The position numbers and the translations under genes were made by a program. DNA of 64,000 bases, taken from assembly GCA_000146465.1 (NCBI GenBank), contig CP001947.1. The stretch is one strand, 5' to 3'. The notes under the pieces are model-generated. The model saw nothing but the letters and a program-made list of their open reading frames with translations. It did not search any database and had not been told where the DNA came from. Shown piece by piece: positions 1,744-59,873 of the stretch (its first letter is position 1; each line of letters opens with the position of its first letter).

Positions 1744-1962
1744 CTAACTTTTCTGGGTGAAATCCTTGACAATATCAAACTTCAAGAGTTTGTCCACAAT
1801 GTCCACATGCCCCAGAAACATCCTTCTGCAGCATATTCTTTTCATCCCTAGTTCGTCAAGTGCCTCGGCTTCTCTCCCGCTGGTCCTTAGAAGTTCTAGA
1901 TACGGCTCCCATTTGCTGGAGATTTCCTTCCCGCAAGTAAAGCATCTTATTGGAATAATCAT
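1744..1962 (-). CDS. RPB10: RNA polymerase I/II/III common subunit RPB10 (ABC10-beta)
   Basis: 72-aa ORF beginning [12 protein letters not shown], with a later CCRRM zinc-bundle pattern typical of RPB10/RpoN. Confidence 0.9.
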
Positions 1963-11384: not shown

Positions 11385-11455
11385 TGCATCATCCGAGAAT
11401 CGAACTCGGGCCAGCCAGATGGCAACCGGCTATTATACCACTAAACTAATGATGC
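11385..11455 (-). tRNA. tRNA-Gly (anticodon GCC)
   Basis: The 71-nt minus-strand sequence GCATCAT..ATGATGCA folds as a cloverleaf. The 7-bp acceptor stem is perfect. The anticodon stem GCCGG/CTGGC carries the loop TTGCCAT. The T arm is CCGAG-TTCGATT-CTCGG. A T4 run follows the 3' end directly, consistent with a Pol III terminator. Confidence 0.95.
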
Positions 11456-15929: not shown

Positions 15930-17720
15930 ATGATAGAGTTCAAGTATCTGGGAACAAGGAGCGGTAAGTCGTTGATGCTATCAATAGACAATAAAAGATA
16001 TCTGTTTAATCTTTTTGAAGGGTTTCAGAGGTACTGCATCGAATCAAATGTCAGCATCAGCAAGATCTCTGTAATCTTTGTATCTGAGGAGACATCGGTT
16101 CCTCCGCTTGTGGGAACATATCTTACTCTAAGAGACATAAAAAAAGAAAGCCTTGACATTGTGTGTAGTTTGAGGCTAGAGAAGATGCTGGCCTTGGCAA
16201 GTGCCTTTGCAGATCCTATGGATCTAAGAATTAATTACATGAGGAATTATTCAGACGGGTTTATCAGCGTGGAAACAATCGAAAACACTCTTTCTGGAGA
16301 TTCTCGAGAAAGGAAGGAATCTTCCTTTATTCTGAACATTAGGCCTATTCGGGGAAGATTTCTTGTTGAAAAGGTTCCAAAAGACGTTCCAAAGCATTTA
16401 TACTCTAGACTCACGAGGAGAGAGAAGGTGGAACATAACGGAAGAGTGTATAATGGGGAGGAATACATGGAAGACGATATAGATGTCGGAGTTATTGCTG
16501 TTGTTTTTTCCTCGGGAAATTATGGGGAACTTTTGGAAAGGATGAGAAGAAGGGCCCCGAGGTACTTCTTTTGTTTTCAAAGAGATGTTGCTCAATTTCT
16601 CTCTTCTACCCTTGAAGGCCGTTTCTTCCTCTTGGAAGATAATCACTTTGTTGAGTATGGATCACTTTATGACATCCAGATTGGCTTAGGCTCAATACAT
16701 GGGGACTTTCTGTCGCCGCTTCCCTTTGAAAAGACAGCCTCCCCCTCTCCTTGGGATATGGAGAGTGTTCAGAGCGGAGACTTTCTCACATACGATAAGA
16801 ATTTAAGGTCTTTTTCCCATTTCCCTTCAAAGCAGAAAGAATACATCCCATGCACACGGAAACACGAAGAAAGGTCTATATTGTTTCTTGGAACCGGGTG
16901 TGCTATTCCATCTAAGTACAGAAATGTATCTGGAATACTCTACGAGTCCACCGACAGGGCTATTATGCTCGACTGTGGAGAAGATACTTTATTTCAAATA
17001 CATAGGGCCTATGGAGGATTTGACGTCCTAAAGAAGCTCAAGGCAATCTTCATATCACATTCTCATGCAGACCATATGCTGGGGATTATATCTGTGTTGA
17101 AGAAAGTAGGCCACAGGGTGAAGGTCTTTGCTCCAGTAGTCATAAGGCCGTTTGTTGAATGCTTTGGTGCTGGAGACTATGAATACATAGAAACAAACCA
17201 TGCAAAGATAGCAGAAAGAGAGTTTCGGGGAGACTTGGGATCAATGGGGGAATTTTCTCTAGGAAACATCAATGCAGAAGATTATTTTTTGAAGTTTGAC
17301 GTGGGATTTAGAATATCTATTTGTGGGGTTGACCACTGTTCAGACTCGTGTGGAATTAGAATTCAGGATGACACCACAGTTATAACATACTCTGGAGACT
17401 CAAGGCCCTCTATACTGTTTGGAATAATGTCCTCTGATTCTGATGTTATGATCCATGAAGCCACATTTGTCTTTGACCAGCAAGAAAGAGCCATGCATAC
17501 AGGCCATTCAACAGTAGACGGAGCTGTTGAAGTCTTTAGATCATCCAGATCAAAAGTCCTACTTCTCACACACTTTAGCCAAAGGTATTCAAAGGGCGTT
17601 ATAACTGACGGCCAGTGGATTCCTTGTGTGGATCTATTTAGATATGCGGTTGGATCAAGTGTCTATCCTAAGGACAAAATCAATGGTTATTATAGTAAGC
17701 TTGAATCTTCTAATAAGTAA
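15930..17720 (+). CDS. TRZ1: tRNA 3' endonuclease, long-form tRNase Z (ELAC2/TRZ1)
   Basis: 596 aa. The C-terminal metallo-beta-lactamase half has the histidine motif FISHSHADHMLG plus downstream HEATF and LTHFSQRY. The N-terminal half is a degenerate duplicate. Confidence 0.85.
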   Translation: MIEFKYLGTRSGKSLMLSIDNKRYLFNLFEGFQRYCIESNVSISKISVIFVSEETSVPPLVGTYLTLRDIKKESLDIVCSLRLEKMLALASAFADPMDLRINYMRNYSDGFISVETIENTLSGDSRERKESSFILNIRPIRGRFLVEKVPKDVPKHLYSRLTRREKVEHNGRVYNGEEYMEDDIDVGVIAVVFSSGNYGELLERMRRRAPRYFFCFQRDVAQFLSSTLEGRFFLLEDNHFVEYGSLYDIQIGLGSIHGDFLSPLPFEKTASPSPWDMESVQSGDFLTYDKNLRSFSHFPSKQKEYIPCTRKHEERSILFLGTGCAIPSKYRNVSGILYESTDRAIMLDCGEDTLFQIHRAYGGFDVLKKLKAIFISHSHADHMLGIISVLKKVGHRVKVFAPVVIRPFVECFGAGDYEYIETNHAKIAEREFRGDLGSMGEFSLGNINAEDYFLKFDVGFRISICGVDHCSDSCGIRIQDDTTVITYSGDSRPSILFGIMSSDSDVMIHEATFVFDQQERAMHTGHSTVDGAVEVFRSSRSKVLLLTHFSQRYSKGVITDGQWIPCVDLFRYAVGSSVYPKDKINGYYSKLESSNK

Positions 17721-19307: not shown

Positions 19308-19811
19308 ATGGACAACGAAAGGAAAACAGCCACTGTTACATTCAGGGGCATGAGATTTAAGGACTTGCTTCAAGTCCAGCAGTTGAACATGAGAAACTCT
19401 ACAGAGAACTTTCTGCTTGGCACGTTTCTGAGTACTTTATCGGCATCTTATGCAACTTCCTTCGTTGCAGAGCTGGACGGGAAGATTATAGGGTACTCGG
19501 AGGCTGCTGTCTTTCGAGAGAGGAAAAAAGGACATATCTACTCTATTTGCGTGGATGGGCCTTTCAGAGGATGTGGAATTGGGAGAAGGCTTATTGGGCT
19601 TTCGATAGATGCTATAAGAACAGAGATGAAGGAAAAGGAGATATGCGAAATAGATCTTTATGTTAGGACATCCAACACAGAGGCTATTGGTCTGTACAAG
19701 TCTGTTGGATTTGTGATAAGAGAGAAAGACCTTTCCTATTACGAGGGAGGGGCTCCTGCACATAGAATGAGCCTGTACTTAGGAACAGGCACAGAATCGA
19801 GGAAACCCTAA
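19308..19811 (+). CDS. GNAT-family N-alpha-acetyltransferase catalytic subunit (ARD1/NAA10-like)
   Basis: Acetyl-CoA binding core ICVDGPFRGCGIGRRLI. Overall collinear with Ard1 (ENF...YF..., HVR.SN..A..LY). Start at the ATG at 19308 (track start is TTG). Confidence 0.7.
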   Translation: MDNERKTATVTFRGMRFKDLLQVQQLNMRNSTENFLLGTFLSTLSASYATSFVAELDGKIIGYSEAAVFRERKKGHIYSICVDGPFRGCGIGRRLIGLSIDAIRTEMKEKEICEIDLYVRTSNTEAIGLYKSVGFVIREKDLSYYEGGAPAHRMSLYLGTGTESRKP

Positions 19812-38495: not shown

Positions 38496-38999
38496 ATGGA
38501 CTGGTACGAGCCGGGAGAGGACACATACACACTAATGGATGTTTTGGAAGAAGAGGACCTGGAAATGAAGGTTATTCTGGACCTGGGAACATCGACTGGA
38601 ATAATAGCAGAGCATCTGGAAAAGAAAAACACTGTCCTATCGTCAGACATCAACATCAAAGCACTTCAAAACCATAGGGGAGGAAATTTAGTGAGGGCAG
38701 ACTTACTTCATGCAATAAATCAGCAACATGTGGATATTGTTGTGTTCAATCCTCCATATGTACTTGACTCCGACGACCCTGTCATAGGAGGGGGCCATCT
38801 TGGAAGAGAAGTGATCGATAGATTCATCAGTCTTCTCGAGATCGGGATTGTATATCTTCTTGTTATACAGGCCAACAAGCCAAGTGAGGTAATGAAGCTG
38901 CTTGAAGAAAAGGGATATAAAACCAAAATTCTTAGGGTGAGAAAGATCCTGGGAGAAACAATCTATATCATCAAGGGGGAAAGACACATAAAGAAATAG
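38496..38999 (+). CDS. MTQ2: eRF1 glutamine methyltransferase MTQ2 / N6AMT1 (HemK family)
   Basis: WYEPGEDTYTLMDVL matches vYEPaEDtFLLlDaL. SAM motif ILDLGTSTGI and catalytic VFNPPYV. Start at the ATG at 38496. Confidence 0.8.
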   Translation: MDWYEPGEDTYTLMDVLEEEDLEMKVILDLGTSTGIIAEHLEKKNTVLSSDINIKALQNHRGGNLVRADLLHAINQQHVDIVVFNPPYVLDSDDPVIGGGHLGREVIDRFISLLEIGIVYLLVIQANKPSEVMKLLEEKGYKTKILRVRKILGETIYIIKGERHIKK

Positions 39000-43301: not shown

Positions 43302-43601
43302 ATGAATTCAAGATCAATGAAGCTTTCTAGTGTGATGTTTCTAGCTCTGTCTTCTCTTGTCTCTGCTGGCTGGTGGGGATCGTCTTCTACAACCGAAGGA
43401 GGTGACAGCAATAGCTCACAGTTATTTGGAATGGGAAGTCAAGGGGAGGGGGGAAATCCCAGTACAGATGGAAAGAGTAACCTGGTTGAGGAGTCGGAAG
43501 GACATAACGACGAAGGTAACGAAGGAGGAGAAGGATCCAAGAACAACCCTGGAAAGAACGAAAACTCATCAGGCTTCTGGGAGAGCAAAACACAAGACTA
43601 A
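43302..43601 (+). CDS. small secreted G/S/N/E-rich protein (99 aa)
   Basis: Signal peptide MKLSSVMFLALSSLVSAG followed by acidic low-complexity sequence (GGDSNSS..GEGGNPSTDG..NDEGNEGGEGSKNNPGKNENSSG). Confidence 0.45.
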   Translation: MNSRSMKLSSVMFLALSSLVSAGWWGSSSTTEGGDSNSSQLFGMGSQGEGGNPSTDGKSNLVEESEGHNDEGNEGGEGSKNNPGKNENSSGFWESKTQD

Positions 43602-43721
43602 GTCCCTGTGGCAGACATTTCTTGCTCTTGAACATCCTCAAGTGAAGAAACAATAAAGCTGTTGTATTTTTGTCATATTATTTATCTGGGATATTTTTAG
43701 GTAAAACATATAAGGTACCCC

Positions 43722-44278
43722 ATGAAGTTTTCTCGGATAGTTATGATGGGGCCGCCAGGATGTGGAAAGGGAACCCAGTCTAAGCTTATATCTGAAAGAT
43801 ATGGAATTCCCCACGTGAGCTCTGGAGACATTATACGGGAAGAGATGATGAAGAGTAAGTTAGGGTAGTAATTTTAGACACCAAGGAAGCAGAAATAGTT
43901 AGAGAGATTGTTAACTCAGGAGGATTGGCTCCTAACGAAGTTGTGAATAAACTGGTGCTGAAGAAGATTCGAAGCATGGATAGGTATATTCTCGATGGAT
44001 ACCCCAGAAGAACCGACCAGGCAGAAATGCTGGGAGACAGTGTTGACCTAGTGATATTTATTGATGTGGACAAGGATACATGCATTCATAGGATCTGCAA
44101 GCGAAATCATGGAAGGGATGATGATGAGGAGGAGGTTGGAAGAAAGAGATATGACGTCTACACGAAGGAAACAATGCCTATACTTGAGCTGTATAAGAGC
44201 TATGGAAAGATAGTAAGGGTGGATGGGAATGGTTCTCCCGAGACCATATTTTCTAAGATCTGCGGAATTATTGAATGA
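43722..44278 (+). CDS. adenylate kinase / UMP-CMP kinase family protein, two exons (43722..43854 and 43878..44278)
   Basis: Exon 1 carries the P-loop [10 protein letters not shown] and SSGDIIRE. Exon 2 carries [17 protein letters not shown] and the short [23 protein letters not shown]. The two frames join only after removing a 23-nt GT..AG intron. Confidence 0.85.
43855..43877 (+). other. 23-nt spliceosomal intron
   Basis: The intron sequence is GTAAGTTAGGGTAGTAATTTTAG. It has a canonical GTAAGT 5' site, a UAAU branch-like element 4 nt before the 3' AG, and a length of 2 mod 3, which restores the kinase frame. Confidence 0.8.
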
Positions 44279-51024: not shown

Positions 51025-51768
51025 ATGAAGGACAGCACTGATTTTACTGAGACGGAAGCATATTCAAAGATATACAACTTCATTCTGATGGTCGACGACT
51101 CAATCAAAAACTCGGAACAGAGACGAAGCGAGCATCATATGTCCATTCTTGCAAACATCTTCGAGATTGTAGACAGCACAGAGAAGGATCCGTCTCCACA
51201 GAGGTATGCAAACATGGCTGCCAAAACCGTATTCCAAAGAATATGCGGTGCATATGACGACGAACATCTCAAAAACTCATTTGGAAACCAGATAAGATTG
51301 GACTATGGCACCGGCCATGAGCTGAACTTCCTGTGCTACCTCTACACTCACCATTGTAGAGGAGACATCAGCCTCGACTGTGTATTTACCACCCTTGTAA
51401 GATACTTCGAGGTTGTCAGGCTCTTTGTATCAAAATTCAATCTGGAGCCGGCCGGAAGTCATGGAATATGGGGTCTGGACGACTATCAATTTCTGCCCTT
51501 CCTCTTTGGGTCTTCTGAGCTCTGCAACACAAGGCTCAGATTCGACGAGCTCAACGACTCCATGTGCTACTTTGTTGCAGTCAAGAAGAAGTTGGGAGGC
51601 ACCTCTCAAATCCTCAACAGCATCATGGATAAGGACTGGCCAAAAGTCAACAGGGGAATGATTAGGATGTACGATGACCATGTGCTCAGAAGAAGCGTTG
51701 TGACACAGCACTTCATCTATGGAGAATACCTCAAGAAGGACAGAAGTCTAGCCACTAAAGAACTCTGA
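51025..51768 (+). CDS. RRD2: PP2A phosphatase activator PTPA (RRD1/RRD2 family)
   Basis: DYGTGHELNFLCYLY and PAGSHGIWGLDDYQFLPFLFGSSEL are the PTPA signature blocks. Confidence 0.9.
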   Translation: MKDSTDFTETEAYSKIYNFILMVDDSIKNSEQRRSEHHMSILANIFEIVDSTEKDPSPQRYANMAAKTVFQRICGAYDDEHLKNSFGNQIRLDYGTGHELNFLCYLYTHHCRGDISLDCVFTTLVRYFEVVRLFVSKFNLEPAGSHGIWGLDDYQFLPFLFGSSELCNTRLRFDELNDSMCYFVAVKKKLGGTSQILNSIMDKDWPKVNRGMIRMYDDHVLRRSVVTQHFIYGEYLKKDRSLATKEL

Positions 51769-51805
51769 AACTCACATAGTAACCAAACCACTTTAATTAA
51801 AGTCA

Positions 51806-52786
51806 TCAGAAGTCGACATCTATCCTGAACGAATCATTTCCATTATCTATCCCCACAAATGCCTTCTGGTACTGTGACTCTCTCTTGTCGAAGAAGTTTG
51901 TCTTTCCAACCAAAGAGATGTTCTCCATAAAATCAAACGGGTTGGGAGTATGGTATATCTTCTCCTCCTCAAGATTCTCTAGGAGAGTATCGGCTACAAA
52001 CTCTATATATTTGCACATCAACTGGCAGTTCATCCCTATAAGATCCACTGGAAGACTTTCACTCAGAAACCTCTTTTCAACTTCGACTGCATCCATCACC
52101 ACCTCCTTTACTCGCTTGCACTTCTGTTTCAGGTAACGTCTATGCAAAAGGCATGCAAACTCACAGTGCAGACCCTCGTCCCTGCTTATCAGCTCGTTCG
52201 AAAACGTTAGTCCAGGCATCAGCCCTCTCTTCTTCAGCCAGAATATAGATGCAAATGACCCAGAAAAGAATATACCCTCCACACAGGCAAACGCCACAAG
52301 CCTTGTTGCAAAGTCAGAATTCTTATCCTCAATCCATTTTATTGCCCAATCGGCCTTGTCTTTCACAGAGGGGATAGTTTTGACTGCATTAAAAAGGAAC
52401 TTCTTCTGTTCTCCGTCCCTTACATACGTGTCAATCAGCAGGCTGTACATCTCACTGTGGATGTTCTCAATTGCAATCTGGAACCCATAGAATAGCTTTG
52501 CTTCAAGCATCTTGACCTCGCTGGAGAACCGCTCCACCAGATTCAGATTGACAATTCCATCAGACGCCGCAAAGAATGCAAGAACATTGGAGATAAAGTG
52601 CTTCTCCTTTGGATTTAACTTCTTCCAATCTTCAATGTCTTTGTCGAGGAGAACCTCTTCCACAGTCCAGAACGAGCTTTCAGCCTTCTTGTACATCCTC
52701 CATACATCTTCGTGTTGTATGGGAAAGAGTACAAACCTCTCTTCTTTAGGATCCAATAGTGGCTCAATTTTTTCTTCGCAACTCAT
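51806..52786 (-). CDS. RNR2: ribonucleotide reductase small (R2) subunit
   Basis: 326 aa with R2 iron/tyrosyl-radical motifs: [48 protein letters not shown] and [10 protein letters not shown]. Confidence 0.95.
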
Positions 52787-53064: not shown

Positions 53065-53717
53065 TTACTCAAGATCAATAAATTCCTTTCTCATGAATGG
53101 TAATATACGTTTTCTCGCATTTGCAAACCAATTATCTATTTGAGACAATTTTAGTCCTGTTTCTTTAGAAAGTATTTTTTTTCTATTTTAGTTGGATAAG
53201 GATTAGAAAGATGCTCCTTTAGCCATCTTCTTAGCATTTTGGACACTTCTCTTGGAAAATTAGCTCTCCTAGAATGAGGACTACTTCCGAGCCAACCATT
53301 AGTTGATGAATTATTTCTTATATAACTCTCATACCTGTATAAATCCCTCTCGTTCATTACATTCATCATATCTATGATGTTGTCCATTTTTCTTTGGAGT
53401 TTGGTGCATTCTGAATCAAATATAGAAACAAGATTTTTTTCAAATAGTAATGCATACTTAAATTTCTCAGCAATTAGAAACAAAGCTAGCTTGTGTGATA
53501 AGTTATTCGGAAAAAAATGTGTATTGGAGCATGTTTCGTAATTTTTCCGAATTTTTAATAGGACTTCCTTCAAATGATGTTCATTTATCATTCCTTGAAA
53601 ATATTGTTCTTTTGCGATTAATATTTGGCCAATATGCTCCACCATATCTAGAAAACTATCGGCATTTAAAACAAAAATTGATAAACTCGTAATTAACGTT
53701 ATAAAAATAATATCCAT
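53065..53717 (-). CDS. TALE-class homeobox protein with its frame broken by a 1-nt shift in an A8 run (frame A 53717..53175, then -1 frame 53175..53065)
   Basis: Track ORF 53151..53717 ends ...[39 protein letters not shown], which covers helices 1-2 with the TALE 3-aa loop. The -1 frame continues [36 protein letters not shown], which covers helix 3. The join is at the minus-strand A8 run, 53182..53175. Confidence 0.8.
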
Positions 53718-55276: not shown

Positions 55277-55614
55277 ACTATTAAACTGGTAGTATCAATT
55301 TAAATTACAAATACTTTGGAAATATCTCCTTCTGTTTATTAACTTTTCAAGGGATTGCCGTTTTTTAAAACAAACATATAAGAGTGATGATACATAACTT
55401 CTTTTTGTATTCTTAAGTAAATTCATGTAAAATTTTAGAATAAAATGTCCGAAGATATTTGAGTTCCTATAGCAATAGCAGAAACACACCCTATCTCAAT
55501 TCATTATACTTCCTGGGAATCCATACTTTAAAGATTTAAAGTAAAACTAAAAAGGAAGGGGGTGTTTATTTCAATAGATTAAAATCGAAATATTGTATTT
55601 TTAAACTAAGAGAT

Positions 55615-58440
55615 TTAATGAGCAAACACTCTGGAGACATATACCGGCCCGAGTATCTCATCAATAGAGAGGTCTTCTTTTGCTATCTCGTTGACAGCCT
55701 CAACAACTTTCTCTTCATAGCTCAGGTCGATTATACCCCTTAGATACTTGTTCCATATGTCGGTGCTGTAGATTTCAAAGTTTTTCTTCCTTTCCCTGAA
55801 GAACGAGATGACTCCGTTTCGGAACTCTTCAAACTGATCTTCGCTCATCTCTCTGAAGTATTCGTCCAGGTCTTTTACAAACTTCCTTATCCTCTTTTCA
55901 AGGAAGTCTACATCCTTCTCGCTTTGCACTATGAATTTGATGTACTGCTCGTCATCTAGATTCAGAACCCCAGACCCAACTACATACCCAAGCTCTTCCT
56001 TTGTCCGCAGATCATCGAAGAACATCGCTTTGCATGACTGTTGTACAAAGTGGGCTATGGCTGCATCCTTGTGGTTCCTGCATTTTCCGCAATAGTAGTT
56101 CAAGGAACATGCATTGTTCACCTTGTCGCTTGTTTTCACATCACATCTGTATTTTCCATCAAGAAGATCTTTCTTTACATAATCGTATACTTCCTCCTGT
56201 TTCGAAAGAATATTTTCAAATATCTTCTCGGCATCTTGATACTCGATGTTCCCAATCACAAACATTTCCAAGAAGAACTTTCGGCTCATCTTGAATTCCG
56301 TGTCTACAGAGCTCAGCTTCTCCATCAGCTCCTCTGCCATCAAATGTCCGGGAATCCTCATGCACTTCAGCCCTTCATTGCATCGCTTGTGAGGGCTTTC
56401 GTTTCTCTTTGTCTCAAACTCATTCCAAATCCGCTCCTTCACAAGGTTCCGCCGTGACTGGTTGGGCTCTTCAAACAGAATGTCGAAAAACTGCCGGGAG
56501 ATCTCAACACTCATGTGGTTAAAGCATTCTATCCGAATCTCCACCCCATAGTGCTCGACACGAACATCGATGTTCATTCCTGTTCCGTGAAGATATCCAT
56601 CGTGCCTTCTAAAGAATTGGCTCTTGGCATTTCTGAGCAGAAATATCAAGTTAATCATGTTCTCATTGATTTGGTCCATTCGAAGAAGACATCCTATAAA
56701 GACCTTTGGAACCTTGTAGGTATCGTTAAACAGGTAGTTGATTTTTCCTCCAGAAACCTCCTTTGAAATAATTTCTGAAGGGGCCTCGATTTTTATCATC
56801 TCTCCTTCCTTCCACTCAACTGCCTTCTCCAGTGAGTCTTCAGAGACCACTTTGTCTTTTTCATTGTACTTCGGAGAATACACCTCTTCTGTTTTAAACT
56901 CCCCCTTTAAATCCTTTTGCCCTTGAAGTTCGAGCCATTTGGAGAAATCCGTCATCTTCTGGACAATCTTCTTGACTTCTTCTTTCTTTCCTTTAGAGGA
57001 CTTCTGGGGAAGGACATTTGGGAACACCTTTTCTTCTTTCTTTGGTAAGTCCAACTCAAATATCTGGTCTCCCACATTGTATCTCACCCCATATATCTCC
57101 TCGCGCATGTCAAACATCCCTGTTCCCTTTGCAACATGGAACACAAGCCACTTTGGGAAGTTCATCATCTTTTCCACAATCCCCTTGATCTCGTTCTTGT
57201 CAAATTTCTCAAAACAGTGTTCGTTATCAAGAACATTCTCAACCGGGAAAAACTGCATGTTTCTAGAGATCTTCTGTGCCTGGTACATAGGCTCGTCACT
57301 CTCCTCGTACTTGAACACATATCTCGATCTCTTTTGGATCTCTTCATACTCATCAGAAGAGATGGGGATGTCTTTGAGATACCTTACAAGTTCTAAAAGA
57401 ACTCTTTCAGGTCTTTTGTTTCCCTCGGAAGACAGATGCATTGTTATTATTATCAGAGAATAGTCTGTGTAGTGGCACATCTCATACTCAACCTGCAGAA
57501 CGAGCCCTTTGTCCTTAACCCTACATGCAAACCCCTTTGTATCGTCCCGAAGAAACATATTCATTACATACTCGTAAGGATTGTTCTTGAAAATCTTGTA
57601 CCCCGACTCAACAGTCATTGTAACAACAATCGATCTTGTATCTGCAATAGGCTCCACCCTGATCCATCGGTTGGTGTATTCAGAGTCAAACACAGTCCAT
57701 TCCTTGTCTGCTTCAAGTTCTATGTTTCCACTGCTCTTCTTCTCCTCGGTCCCCTTTGGAACCCCCTCAAACATCTTCAACATCTCCTTTAGCTCCTCCA
57801 GACCTTTGTTTCCACAAATCACTGTACACATTTTATCGCAGGAATACTTCTGTTTCCAGAACTCTGCCATCTCTTCCCATATCCCTTCTTTTCGAAGTGT
57901 GTCGTAGTTTCCTGTGCTGAACATAGATATCGGCAGTTCCTTCTTGCAGCATCTTGAAATCATCCTCCAGATCCTCCAGTCATCAACATTCAGTCCGTTA
58001 CAGAACTCGGAGTTCACAGCCGACACCTCTCTCTCCACCGAGTTTTTCTTCAGCAGTGGTGTCTTGAAGAAGTCTGCAAGTCGGTCCACCCCTTCTTCAA
58101 AAGCCTCAGGAGCAATATCGAAGTAATACACAGTAACCTCTCCATAGGTGGAGGCATTGTATTCCCCGTTGTTCTTTGAAAGGAATTTGCCAAAATCCTC
58201 TTCATCAGGGTATTTCTCAGTCCCCATAAACAGCATATGCTCAAGGAAATGTGCAAGACCTTGAGTAGATACCGGGTTATCAAACGATCCAACCTTGACA
58301 GAGACTGCACAGCTGCACTTGTCCAGTGAAGGATCCGACATAATCAGCCCTCGCATCCCGTTGGGCATCTCGACATACTCATATTCCATCGAGTCGGTGA
58401 GACTCTTGTGAATCTTTTTGGCAACTTTAAGACAATTCAT
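55615..58440 (-). CDS. insulinase-family (M16A) zinc metalloprotease, insulin-degrading-enzyme/STE23-like
   Basis: Inverted zinc motif GLAHFLEHMLFMGTEKYP (HxxEH). Four-domain length of about 940 aa. The N-terminus IHKSLTDSMEYEYVEMPNGMRGLIMSDP parallels the IDE start. Start chosen at the ATG at 58440 (MNCLKVAKK); the track start at 58599 adds 53 residues unlike the family. Confidence 0.85.
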   Translation of the reverse strand: MNCLKVAKKIHKSLTDSMEYEYVEMPNGMRGLIMSDPSLDKCSCAVSVKVGSFDNPVSTQGLAHFLEHMLFMGTEKYPDEEDFGKFLSKNNGEYNASTYGEVTVYYFDIAPEAFEEGVDRLADFFKTPLLKKNSVEREVSAVNSEFCNGLNVDDWRIWRMISRCCKKELPISMFSTGNYDTLRKEGIWEEMAEFWKQKYSCDKMCTVICGNKGLEELKEMLKMFEGVPKGTEEKKSSGNIELEADKEWTVFDSEYTNRWIRVEPIADTRSIVVTMTVESGYKIFKNNPYEYVMNMFLRDDTKGFACRVKDKGLVLQVEYEMCHYTDYSLIIITMHLSSEGNKRPERVLLELVRYLKDIPISSDEYEEIQKRSRYVFKYEESDEPMYQAQKISRNMQFFPVENVLDNEHCFEKFDKNEIKGIVEKMMNFPKWLVFHVAKGTGMFDMREEIYGVRYNVGDQIFELDLPKKEEKVFPNVLPQKSSKGKKEEVKKIVQKMTDFSKWLELQGQKDLKGEFKTEEVYSPKYNEKDKVVSEDSLEKAVEWKEGEMIKIEAPSEIISKEVSGGKINYLFNDTYKVPKVFIGCLLRMDQINENMINLIFLLRNAKSQFFRRHDGYLHGTGMNIDVRVEHYGVEIRIECFNHMSVEISRQFFDILFEEPNQSRRNLVKERIWNEFETKRNESPHKRCNEGLKCMRIPGHLMAEELMEKLSSVDTEFKMSRKFFLEMFVIGNIEYQDAEKIFENILSKQEEVYDYVKKDLLDGKYRCDVKTSDKVNNACSLNYYCGKCRNHKDAAIAHFVQQSCKAMFFDDLRTKEELGYVVGSGVLNLDDEQYIKFIVQSEKDVDFLEKRIRKFVKDLDEYFREMSEDQFEEFRNGVISFFRERKKNFEIYSTDIWNKYLRGIIDLSYEEKVVEAVNEIAKEDLSIDEILGPVYVSRVFAH

Positions 58441-58550
58441 TAAAGCGGAAAGCCTAACCATAAGGGCTTCCAAGGTTCTGTTTATAGGAAAATTTTGTCT
58501 GGCACTACTGGAAAATACGAGAAACCGCCCCGGAATGACCCTGAAATAAC

Positions 58551-59873
58551 ATGGAGACTGCAAGGAAGATAAGGAGACACAAAATACTTGCATATGCACT
58601 GACTGCGGTGGAGGCCATGGGGCTGTCTGTGGTGGTTAAACAGGCCGTCAGGAATCCGCTTAGAGTTCTTTTGAATCCACCGAAGGGCCTTGTGCGAGGT
58701 CTGTGTTCCATCCCTACTATTATGCTATGGATTGCCATATACATATACCTTTCGGGGAAAGTTGCACAAGAAGCAGGAAGGCCTCGGACGGTCATCTTCT
58801 TCTATCATCTTACCTCACAGATAATGTTTTTGGGGTACCTTTCCAAGCCGGGTTCAGATGTTGGAATGAATAGTAGATGGGTCACGCTTATACCAACAAA
58901 CGGATGTTCTGTATACAGCGTGGCTCTTTCCATATCCTCGGCAACACTCCAAACATATATTGAGGAGATTCTATGGATGAAGCCAAGATACACACGAGTT
59001 AGAGGATTGTTCAACTACATGGGAAGAAGTATAGGAGTGATGGTGCGAGACATGTTTTATCTTTGTATTGGCAGCGAGTTCATGGCAATAGGTGCTCTTA
59101 CGATGTGCTTGGTAGTCTCGAAGACTCTGTTTCCATGGTCACGCCTTGGACCTTTCTGGTTATTCCAGGGAACAGCTTGGAGGATGTCTGGGGGGTTTTT
59201 GGCTGCCAACATCTCTACTGCTGCTTATTTTCTTCTGATGAGTGCCATTGATAGGCTTCTAACTTACAACATGTCACTGATGAATCTTGGCTTGGGCGAC
59301 TACTGCTGTAACGAGGAGGAGAGCATCAACACCTCAAGACTGAGGTTTTTCCAGATATCCGAGCTTTCAATGAAATATCCCGAGGTTTTCAAAAAGGTGG
59401 CAAGATCAAACAAAGCTGTTTCGTCCCTTGGGCTGTATGTCCGTAGAGAAGAAAGAGAGATTTTAAAGATCATGGAAACGATGAGGAGAGAGAGGGAAAC
59501 ACTTGAGTCCCGAATGTGGTTTTCTGTTCCCCAGATCACCCAACCTCTAGACAAACCAAAGGCGTTGGTTGTTCAAAGAAAAGTTCAGTTTGTAAAGAGA
59601 ATAAGATCGTATAATTTCATTGAGATTCTTGCATCCAGGATCGTATACTTCTTTAAGATACGTATTTTGATTAATAGATACAAGGGCACCAGAAGACCGT
59701 TCCTTCTGGTAAAGAGCTTTATGAAGTTTCTAGAGAAATATAGAAGGGACTACCTACTTCTCAAGGATCTTGACGAGACGTTTGAGGCCTCGATGAAGAA
59801 TCTGCACAACGAAATCTCCAACACCGAGGAGGTGATTGGGATTGGTCTGGAGTCGGAGCTGTTCTGTAAGTAA
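58551..59873 (+). CDS. hypothetical multi-pass membrane protein (440 aa)
   Basis: About 6 hydrophobic helices in the first 240 aa, followed by a basic and helical C-terminal domain. No family recognised. Confidence 0.5.
   Translation: METARKIRRHKILAYALTAVEAMGLSVVVKQAVRNPLRVLLNPPKGLVRGLCSIPTIMLWIAIYIYLSGKVAQEAGRPRTVIFFYHLTSQIMFLGYLSKPGSDVGMNSRWVTLIPTNGCSVYSVALSISSATLQTYIEEILWMKPRYTRVRGLFNYMGRSIGVMVRDMFYLCIGSEFMAIGALTMCLVVSKTLFPWSRLGPFWLFQGTAWRMSGGFLAANISTAAYFLLMSAIDRLLTYNMSLMNLGLGDYCCNEEESINTSRLRFFQISELSMKYPEVFKKVARSNKAVSSLGLYVRREEREILKIMETMRRERETLESRMWFSVPQITQPLDKPKALVVQRKVQFVKRIRSYNFIEILASRIVYFFKIRILINRYKGTRRPFLLVKSFMKFLEKYRRDYLLLKDLDETFEASMKNLHNEISNTEEVIGIGLESELFCK

Follow-up and report, generated by a model that had tools for sequence, protein, structure and literature searches.

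The 23 nt at positions 43855-43877 on the plus strand of the window, by which we mean the whole 64,000-nucleotide stretch of DNA analysed here, are very likely (with a probability of about 0.93) a spliceosomal intron of the U2 type with GT-AG ends, from the class of very short Encephalitozoon introns, and it interrupts Eint_060570, the single adenylate-kinase-family gene of the microsporidian Encephalitozoon intestinalis. The element, GTAAGTTAGGGTAGTAATTTTAG, is in phase 1, and its assignment as spliceosomal draws on the public gene model, on the MicroAnnot prediction and on conservation. It is preceded by exon 1 of 133 nt (43722-43854, plus strand), which consists of 44 codons and base 1 of codon 45 and encodes the P-loop GPPGCGKGT, and it is followed by exon 2 of 401 nt (43878-44278, plus strand), which encodes the rest of the kinase and includes the stop codon TGA at 44276-44278. 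The earlier note had described a 23-nt GT..AG insert at this place, and direct reading of the sequence, with the GT boundary at 43855-43856 and the AG boundary at 43876-43877, agrees with it to the base. Its term "mid-gene" is less apt, because the intron sits at nt 133 of 534, that is, a quarter into the coding sequence. Within the intron, the 5' splice site GTAAGT (43855-43860) is unchanged across five species, TAAT at 43869-43872 is a putative branch-point core by analogy with UACUAAC, and the 3' splice site AG (43876-43877) is the first AG past the TAAT motif; if AGs further downstream served as acceptors, conserved residues would be lost. The length of 23 nt is within the reported range of 22/23-76 nt.

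What happens to the reading frame if the insert stays in the mRNA? From the ATG at 43722 the frame runs through ...EEMMK and then SKLG to a stop, TAG at 43866-43868, four codons into the insert, as had been noticed before, and translation would end at 48 aa. The remainder of the kinase is open in the +2 frame, where, again as pointed out previously, the sole listed ORF begins with TTG at 43925. Deletion of the 23 nt joins the two frames via a split AAC codon (A|AC) at the predicted spliced exon junction GATGAAGA|ACACCAAGG, and yields a coding sequence of 534 nt for 177 aa. Retention therefore means both a stop and a frameshift, since 23 is not a multiple of three. As for the beginning of the gene, the start codon is abutted by CCCC at 43718-43721 on the plus strand (ggtaCCCCATG), which resembles the CCC-like signal for transcription or initiation known from the starts of microsporidian genes (PMC2803860) and which is kept as CCCC(A)ATG in E. 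hellem, E. cuniculi and E. romaleae. This conserved CCCC, taken together with the published CCC-like signal, points to the ATG at 43722 as the true start, and hence to a long exon 1.

The claim that removal of the insert restores a complete adenylate-kinase-family protein is borne out by the 177-aa product, which is identical to ADM11665.2. Against Pfam ADK (PF00406) it scores 132.5 bits (cut-off 26.8) and covers profile positions 1-150 of 151, and it can be aligned over its full length with short-type kinases of solved structure, namely Thermus 3cm0, human AK1 1z83, AK5 and UMP-CMP kinase 1tev. The residues around the junction, ...EEMMKNTKEAE..., are free of gaps against the solved kinases, and likewise in a multiple alignment with bacterial homologues, while the unspliced pieces each match just their own part of the kinase family. 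The P-loop GPPGCGKGT at residues 10-18 fits GxPGxGKGT and is invariant in the alignment. A Pfam scan of the spliced protein gave no match to the LID insertion (ADK_lid, PF05191), and the protein aligns in full with the short kinases 3cm0 and AK1, whereas its alignment with long-type kinases is broken around residue 120. Which nucleoside monophosphate does the enzyme accept? The highest score for an NCBIfam adk subfamily is 166.2, slightly below the cut-off of 168, the UMP-CMP kinase family gives 139.4 vs 207.6, and the E. hellem orthologue is named uridylate kinase in one record. Because these NCBIfam scores leave AMP and UMP/CMP unseparated, the term "adenylate-kinase-family" in the earlier note is the right level of claim.

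The locus can be followed in relatives, where the kinase is likewise preceded by genes for a large and then a small protein, and followed by those for a protein of about 740 aa and a PH-domain protein, in a conserved order. E. hellem, E. cuniculi EcunIII-L and E. romaleae carry 23-nt inserts, GTAAGTTTGATTTATAATTTTAG, GTAAGTCTGGTTTGTAATTTTAG and GTAAGTTTGACTTATAATTTTAG, respectively, each after a 133-nt exon 1, so that the orthologue comparison proposed in the earlier note finds a 23-nt intron at the same site and in the same phase in these three species as in E. intestinalis. These inserts and that of E. intestinalis agree in all six bases of the donor and in the last nine bases (TAATTTTAG), and six of the eight inner bases vary. 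Retention truncates the product at 48-49 aa in all four Encephalitozoon species. Outside this genus, Ordospora pajunii has a 24-nt version, GTAAGTGGCAGCAAATAATTTTAG, at the orthologous site and in the same phase (L009 1634-1657, JACCJH010000010.1; identical in L007 and L008), so that exon 1 measures 133 nt in five species and TAATTTTAG is unchanged in all five. These 24 nt are a multiple of three and free of stops; they can be read as GKWQQIIL, eight extra residues, and the public protein KAH9411266.1 / XP_060276723.1 has 187 aa where splicing would give 179 aa. Since the insert is shared at this site by Ordospora and Encephalitozoon, the intron should predate the split between the two genera. 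The kinase of Anncaliia algerae (L005 35-586, Logan SRR489792) is an uninterrupted ORF with no GT-AG element at the site. It has an unrelated 8-residue insertion, INKKEEAD, at the matching alignment position, which suggests that this loop tolerates insertions. Variable columns, counted by codon position, number 7/6/28 in exon 1 and 50/29/101 in exon 2; the pattern in exon 1 indicates coding constraint. On these alignments, the exons evolve like coding sequence and the insert like splice signals with a spacer. The E. cuniculi orthologue was identified as ECU06_0650 via the upstream strings of the neighbouring genes; ECU06_0570 was considered as well, and was discarded because its upstream strings mismatch the locus.

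The small gene in the conserved order deserves a remark of its own. Just 5' of the kinase lies an ORF of 94 aa (43317-43601, plus strand) with a hydrophobic N-terminus followed by a part rich in G, S, N and E, and without a Pfam match. It is syntenic with small genes 5' of the kinase in all the relatives (126-141 aa; 82-102 aa in Ordospora), and in MicroAnnot Table S2 it counts among the genuine genes that MicroAnnot misses (PMC10815200).

How exceptional is the element within its surroundings? The pattern GTAAGT-N(5-35)-TAATTTTAG has a single match in the 64 kb on both strands, with 0.01 expected from shuffles, and when up to two mismatches to the 23-nt pattern are allowed, 43855-43877 is still the sole match in the window. 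The GTAAGT hexamer as such is not over-represented (14 observed vs 19.5 expected); 13 of the 14 occurrences were placed against the ORFs, and only the one at 43855 is outside any ORF of at least 100 aa on either strand. The motif at 43855-43877 exceeds chance. The G+C content of the window is 42.1%, in line with the 41.4% reported for E. intestinalis (PMC4313915).

That the window holds no other intron, as the earlier note claimed, agrees with the motif scans, with a Pfam scan of 28 ORFs and with the MicroAnnot list. Motif scans of the 64 kb, both strict and relaxed, turned up no other candidate that would have to be, or could be, spliced out. Not one ribosomal-protein gene is present among the 28 small ORFs of the Pfam scan, which included every mapped ATG-initiated ORF of 80-300 aa, and the gaps of the ORF map hold no ATG-less frame resembling an orphan exon, with the exception of the homeobox case described below. 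MicroAnnot Table S2 has no other newly predicted intron within NC_014420 32001-96000, and its one other new intron on chromosome VI, at 148664-149014, falls beyond the window (PMC10815200); it is to be noted that this list comprises newly predicted introns, so that introns of the first annotation are excluded by the motif scans alone. A number of matches were examined and set aside. About 100 matches from a permissive scan (GTAAG-like donor, any AG, a gain of at least 60 aa) are frame hops into existing long ORFs, and relaxed matches inside intact ORFs of the same strand would break the frame if removed. GTAAGT...AG at 15964-16020 is coding and in frame within an intact 596-aa ORF, as is a 30-nt GTAAGT...AG from 54744 within an intact 492-aa ORF, and the minus-strand GTAAGT at 38706 runs antisense to a gene for a methyltransferase. 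A 22-nt intron-like string, GTAAATTCATGTAAAATTTTAG (55417-55438, plus strand), lies in a 338-nt AT-rich spacer between two genes, and is taken as a chance match because there is no reading frame on either side.

Some features of the ORF map came to light in the same survey. In Eint_060650, a homeobox gene of the TALE/KN type (53151-53717, minus strand), a stop cuts the homeodomain short midway, and the remainder, ILSKETGLKLSQIDNWFANARKRIL..., continues in the next frame; the locus as a whole is at 53093-53717 on the minus strand. The break coincides with a run of eight A (A8) at 53175-53182, and nine A (A9) would restore ...IEKKILSKETGLKLSQIDNWFANARKRIL.... Both forms are on record: the A8 form of 164 aa in four E. 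intestinalis entries, ADM11673.2, KAL7345567.1, KAL7349475.1 and UTX45410.1, and the A9 form, with a complete homeodomain and 193 aa, as KAL7347515.1; a Logan contig contains a 217-aa A9 ORF from an upstream ATG of this gene. A strain polymorphism, a homopolymer sequencing error or slippage could be the cause of the A8/A9 difference. A gene for RNA polymerase subunit N/Rpb10 (72 aa, 1744-1962, minus strand; 101 bits to Pfam RNA_pol_N) is located in an apparent gap of the ORF map, and the sole tRNA gene in the window encodes tRNA-Gly(GCC) (11385-11455, minus strand).

The intron is correct but not new: GenBank and a curated list in the literature already have it, and its class is well characterised. 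An exact look-up identified the flanking ORFs as Eint_060550 and Eint_060580 of E. intestinalis ATCC 50506, and the window corresponds to NC_014420 (chromosome VI) 32001-96000. The exact 177-aa spliced sequence is GenBank ADM11665.2, "putative adenylate kinase", and the identical protein is found in three further E. intestinalis assemblies (KAL7345559.1, KAL7347507.1 and KAL7349467.1). The sheet "intron prediction" of MicroAnnot (2024) Table S2 lists NC_014420 75722-76278 (PMC10815200). This span is 557 nt, that is, 534 + 23, and becomes 43722-44278 after subtraction of 32000, an offset that also holds for six further CDS boundaries of the window (51308-51811, for example, equals the ORF at 19308-19811, and 87615-90461 is inside the ORF at 55615-58593). 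With this offset, the MicroAnnot span makes the intron a published and curated feature. The same span is also among the corrected start sites, MicroAnnot itself having mis-set the 5' boundary by 158 nt (PMC10815200). Among Logan contigs, none encodes the spliced protein; run ERR13302946 has the unspliced genomic form of the locus.

That such a gene is easy to mis-annotate had been foreseen, and public data do contain five different wrong models of it. The original ECU06_0650 model starts at the Met of ...REMVNSG..., inside exon 2, and its listed upstream string gaaagaagcaacggttattcgggaa is the beginning of exon 2. E. hellem XP_003887414.1 has 136 aa and its version.2 has 177 aa; E. intestinalis ADM11665 is now at version 2. 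E. cuniculi EcunIII-L (L002 2878-3434) and E. romaleae SJ-2008 (L003 2878-3434) are still annotated with 136 aa, a 10-nt first exon and no P-loop, and their true product should be 177 aa because the 123 nt before their start codon form a conserved stretch in the same frame, with CCCCAATG ahead of it. A gene call on a Logan contig splits the kinase into 48 aa and 117 aa, and in the public O. pajunii model the intron is translated as protein. As an observation on the E. cuniculi data, supplementary file 4 of PMC2803860 gives ECU06_0650 and ECU06_0690 one and the same upstream sequence, and the ECU06_0690 upstream string contains the last eight intron bases (aattttag); this is either due to a duplicated copy of the kinase in E. 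cuniculi GB-M1 or an error in the table.

Can the interruption of the frame be explained without a spliced intron? The kinase might be a pseudogene, or the 23 nt might be an assembly or sequencing error that breaks an intact ORF. A gene caller of the prokaryotic style does split the locus into pieces of 48 aa and 117 aa, the second of them without an ATG. However, four E. intestinalis assemblies share an interruption at this very site, as do the three further Encephalitozoon species, and Ordospora has it in a 24-nt form; substitutions are strongly biased to third positions in both exons; and the invariant bases coincide exactly with the splice motifs. Such a defect is therefore extremely improbable. 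We give just as little credit to the idea that ribosomes pass from one frame to the other by programmed -1 frameshifting or by some other kind of recoding. Removal of 23 nt does amount to a -1 frame change, and the low splicing reported for short E. cuniculi introns makes another route to the full-length protein conceivable. Yet with stops in the +2 frame (TAA, 43856-43858) and in frame 0 (TAG, 43866-43868), the ribosome could slip only within a stretch of about 8 nt (GTTAGGGT), and no slippery heptamer of the form X XXY YYZ occurs there. Moreover, recoding would add about seven residues where homologues align without gaps, and the inner bases that would have to be translated are the least conserved in the region.

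A different doubt accepts the intron and concerns the start: translation might begin at an ATG 10 nt upstream of the intron (43845/43848) and give 135-136 aa without the P-loop. This is what the 136-aa public models of E. cuniculi EcunIII-L and E. romaleae, beginning with MKK..., propose, and a very short first exon is common among Encephalitozoon introns (PMC6349667). However, a protein without GPPGCGKGT could not bind the phosphate donor, the 123 nt upstream are in frame and conserved with the 7/6/28 variation by codon position, the CCC-like signal sits at the upstream ATG in all the species, and the E. hellem and E. intestinalis records have been revised from the short form to 177 aa. The short start is thus very unlikely, if somewhat less so than the two accounts above, and the reading we keep is a spliceosomal intron at 43855-43877 after a long exon 1 that starts at 43722.

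How would this intron be processed? Transcription of Eint_060570 would start just 5' of the ATG at 43722, at the CCCC signal. U1 snRNA would pair with GUAAGU at 43855-43860; the 5' end of Encephalitozoon U1 snRNA is ACUUACC, which is complementary to the GTAAGT donor (PMC5499648). U2 would recognise the UAAU at 43869-43872, the one conserved part of a putative branch region whose pairing with the canonical U2 GUAGUA is poor, and by analogy the branch A would be that at 43871, 6 nt before the 3' junction. The first AG downstream (43876-43877) would serve as the acceptor. From the sequence we infer that the intron is spliced in E. intestinalis RNA, and splicing would leave the 534-nt coding sequence for a 177-aa nucleoside-monophosphate kinase of the short type without a LID insertion. 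The unspliced mRNA would end at the TAG at 43866, with only a 48-aa fragment that bears the P-loop. Splicing efficiency is probably low, as is reported for short E. cuniculi introns. Is it possible that the intron stays at exactly 23 nt as a throttle instead of a relic, so that an inefficient Encephalitozoon spliceosome, through retention, would govern how much the cell makes of its only adenylate-kinase-family enzyme? If so, most transcripts would stay unspliced and yield the 48-aa P-loop fragment only, and the in-frame 24-nt form of Ordospora would be a contrasting state, with an 8-residue loop insertion instead of a null product. We regard such a role as unlikely.

For the biology of E. intestinalis, the intron brings nothing new, and its practical worth lies in annotation hygiene. 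The recovery of the exact published gene model with both splice junctions from the sequence alone can be taken as a positive control.

Among known introns, the closest are those of the E. hellem gene (AFM98433.2 / XP_003887414.2, KAG5860058.1), of ECU06_0650 and of E. romaleae, which are like the E. intestinalis intron in gene, synteny, site after nt 133, phase 1, length of 23 nt and GTAAGT...TAATTTTAG, and which differ from it just among the eight inner bases. The O. pajunii intron in KAH9411266.1 is alike in orthologous site and phase and in GTAAGT...ATAATTTTAG, but measures 24 nt and is annotated as coding, and its retention spares the frame, unlike that of the E. cuniculi introns as reported. 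Those annotated in E. cuniculi have all been confirmed as spliced by RNA-seq, and all give a stop or a frameshift if retained (PMC3629993). Their splicing is mostly low, with 30 of 37 introns below 50% and an average for short introns of less than 20% (PMC3629993, PMC6349667). The introns of about 76 nt in the genes for poly-A-binding protein and S23 (Whelan et al. 2018, PMC6349667) are also spliceosomal and have been kept across microsporidian lineages; their branch point is hyper-extended, they contain a conserved stem-loop and their splicing reaches about 80% (PMC6349667), whereas the kinase intron has the UAAU core only and no space for an internal structure.

The 5'-terminal introns of ribosomal-protein genes (Katinka 2001 set) are alike in size class and motifs. 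They usually begin right after the ATG codon, whereas the kinase intron comes after 44 codons in the gene of a metabolic enzyme. The earlier note had for this reason called it atypical, on the view that introns in these genomes are found chiefly at the 5' ends of genes for ribosomal proteins. This view is outdated: according to PMC6349667, the 16 introns of the 2001 set were joined in Lee et al. 2010 by 20 more, mostly in other genes and without a 5' bias, and the kinase intron fits the pattern of these 20. Many Encephalitozoon introns come after a very short first exon (PMC6349667), and as a class they are of the GT-AG type with strict donor and branch motifs and lengths of 22-76 nt (PMC3629993, PMC6349667). 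Each Encephalitozoon genome has 36 introns of 23-76 bp (Pombert et al. 2015, PMC4313915). The E. intestinalis kinase intron shares with these 36 the GT-AG ends, the strict GTAAGT, a putative branch motif near the acceptor, a length at the lower limit, and the stop and frameshift upon retention; no difference from them was found, and it is evidently a member of this set.
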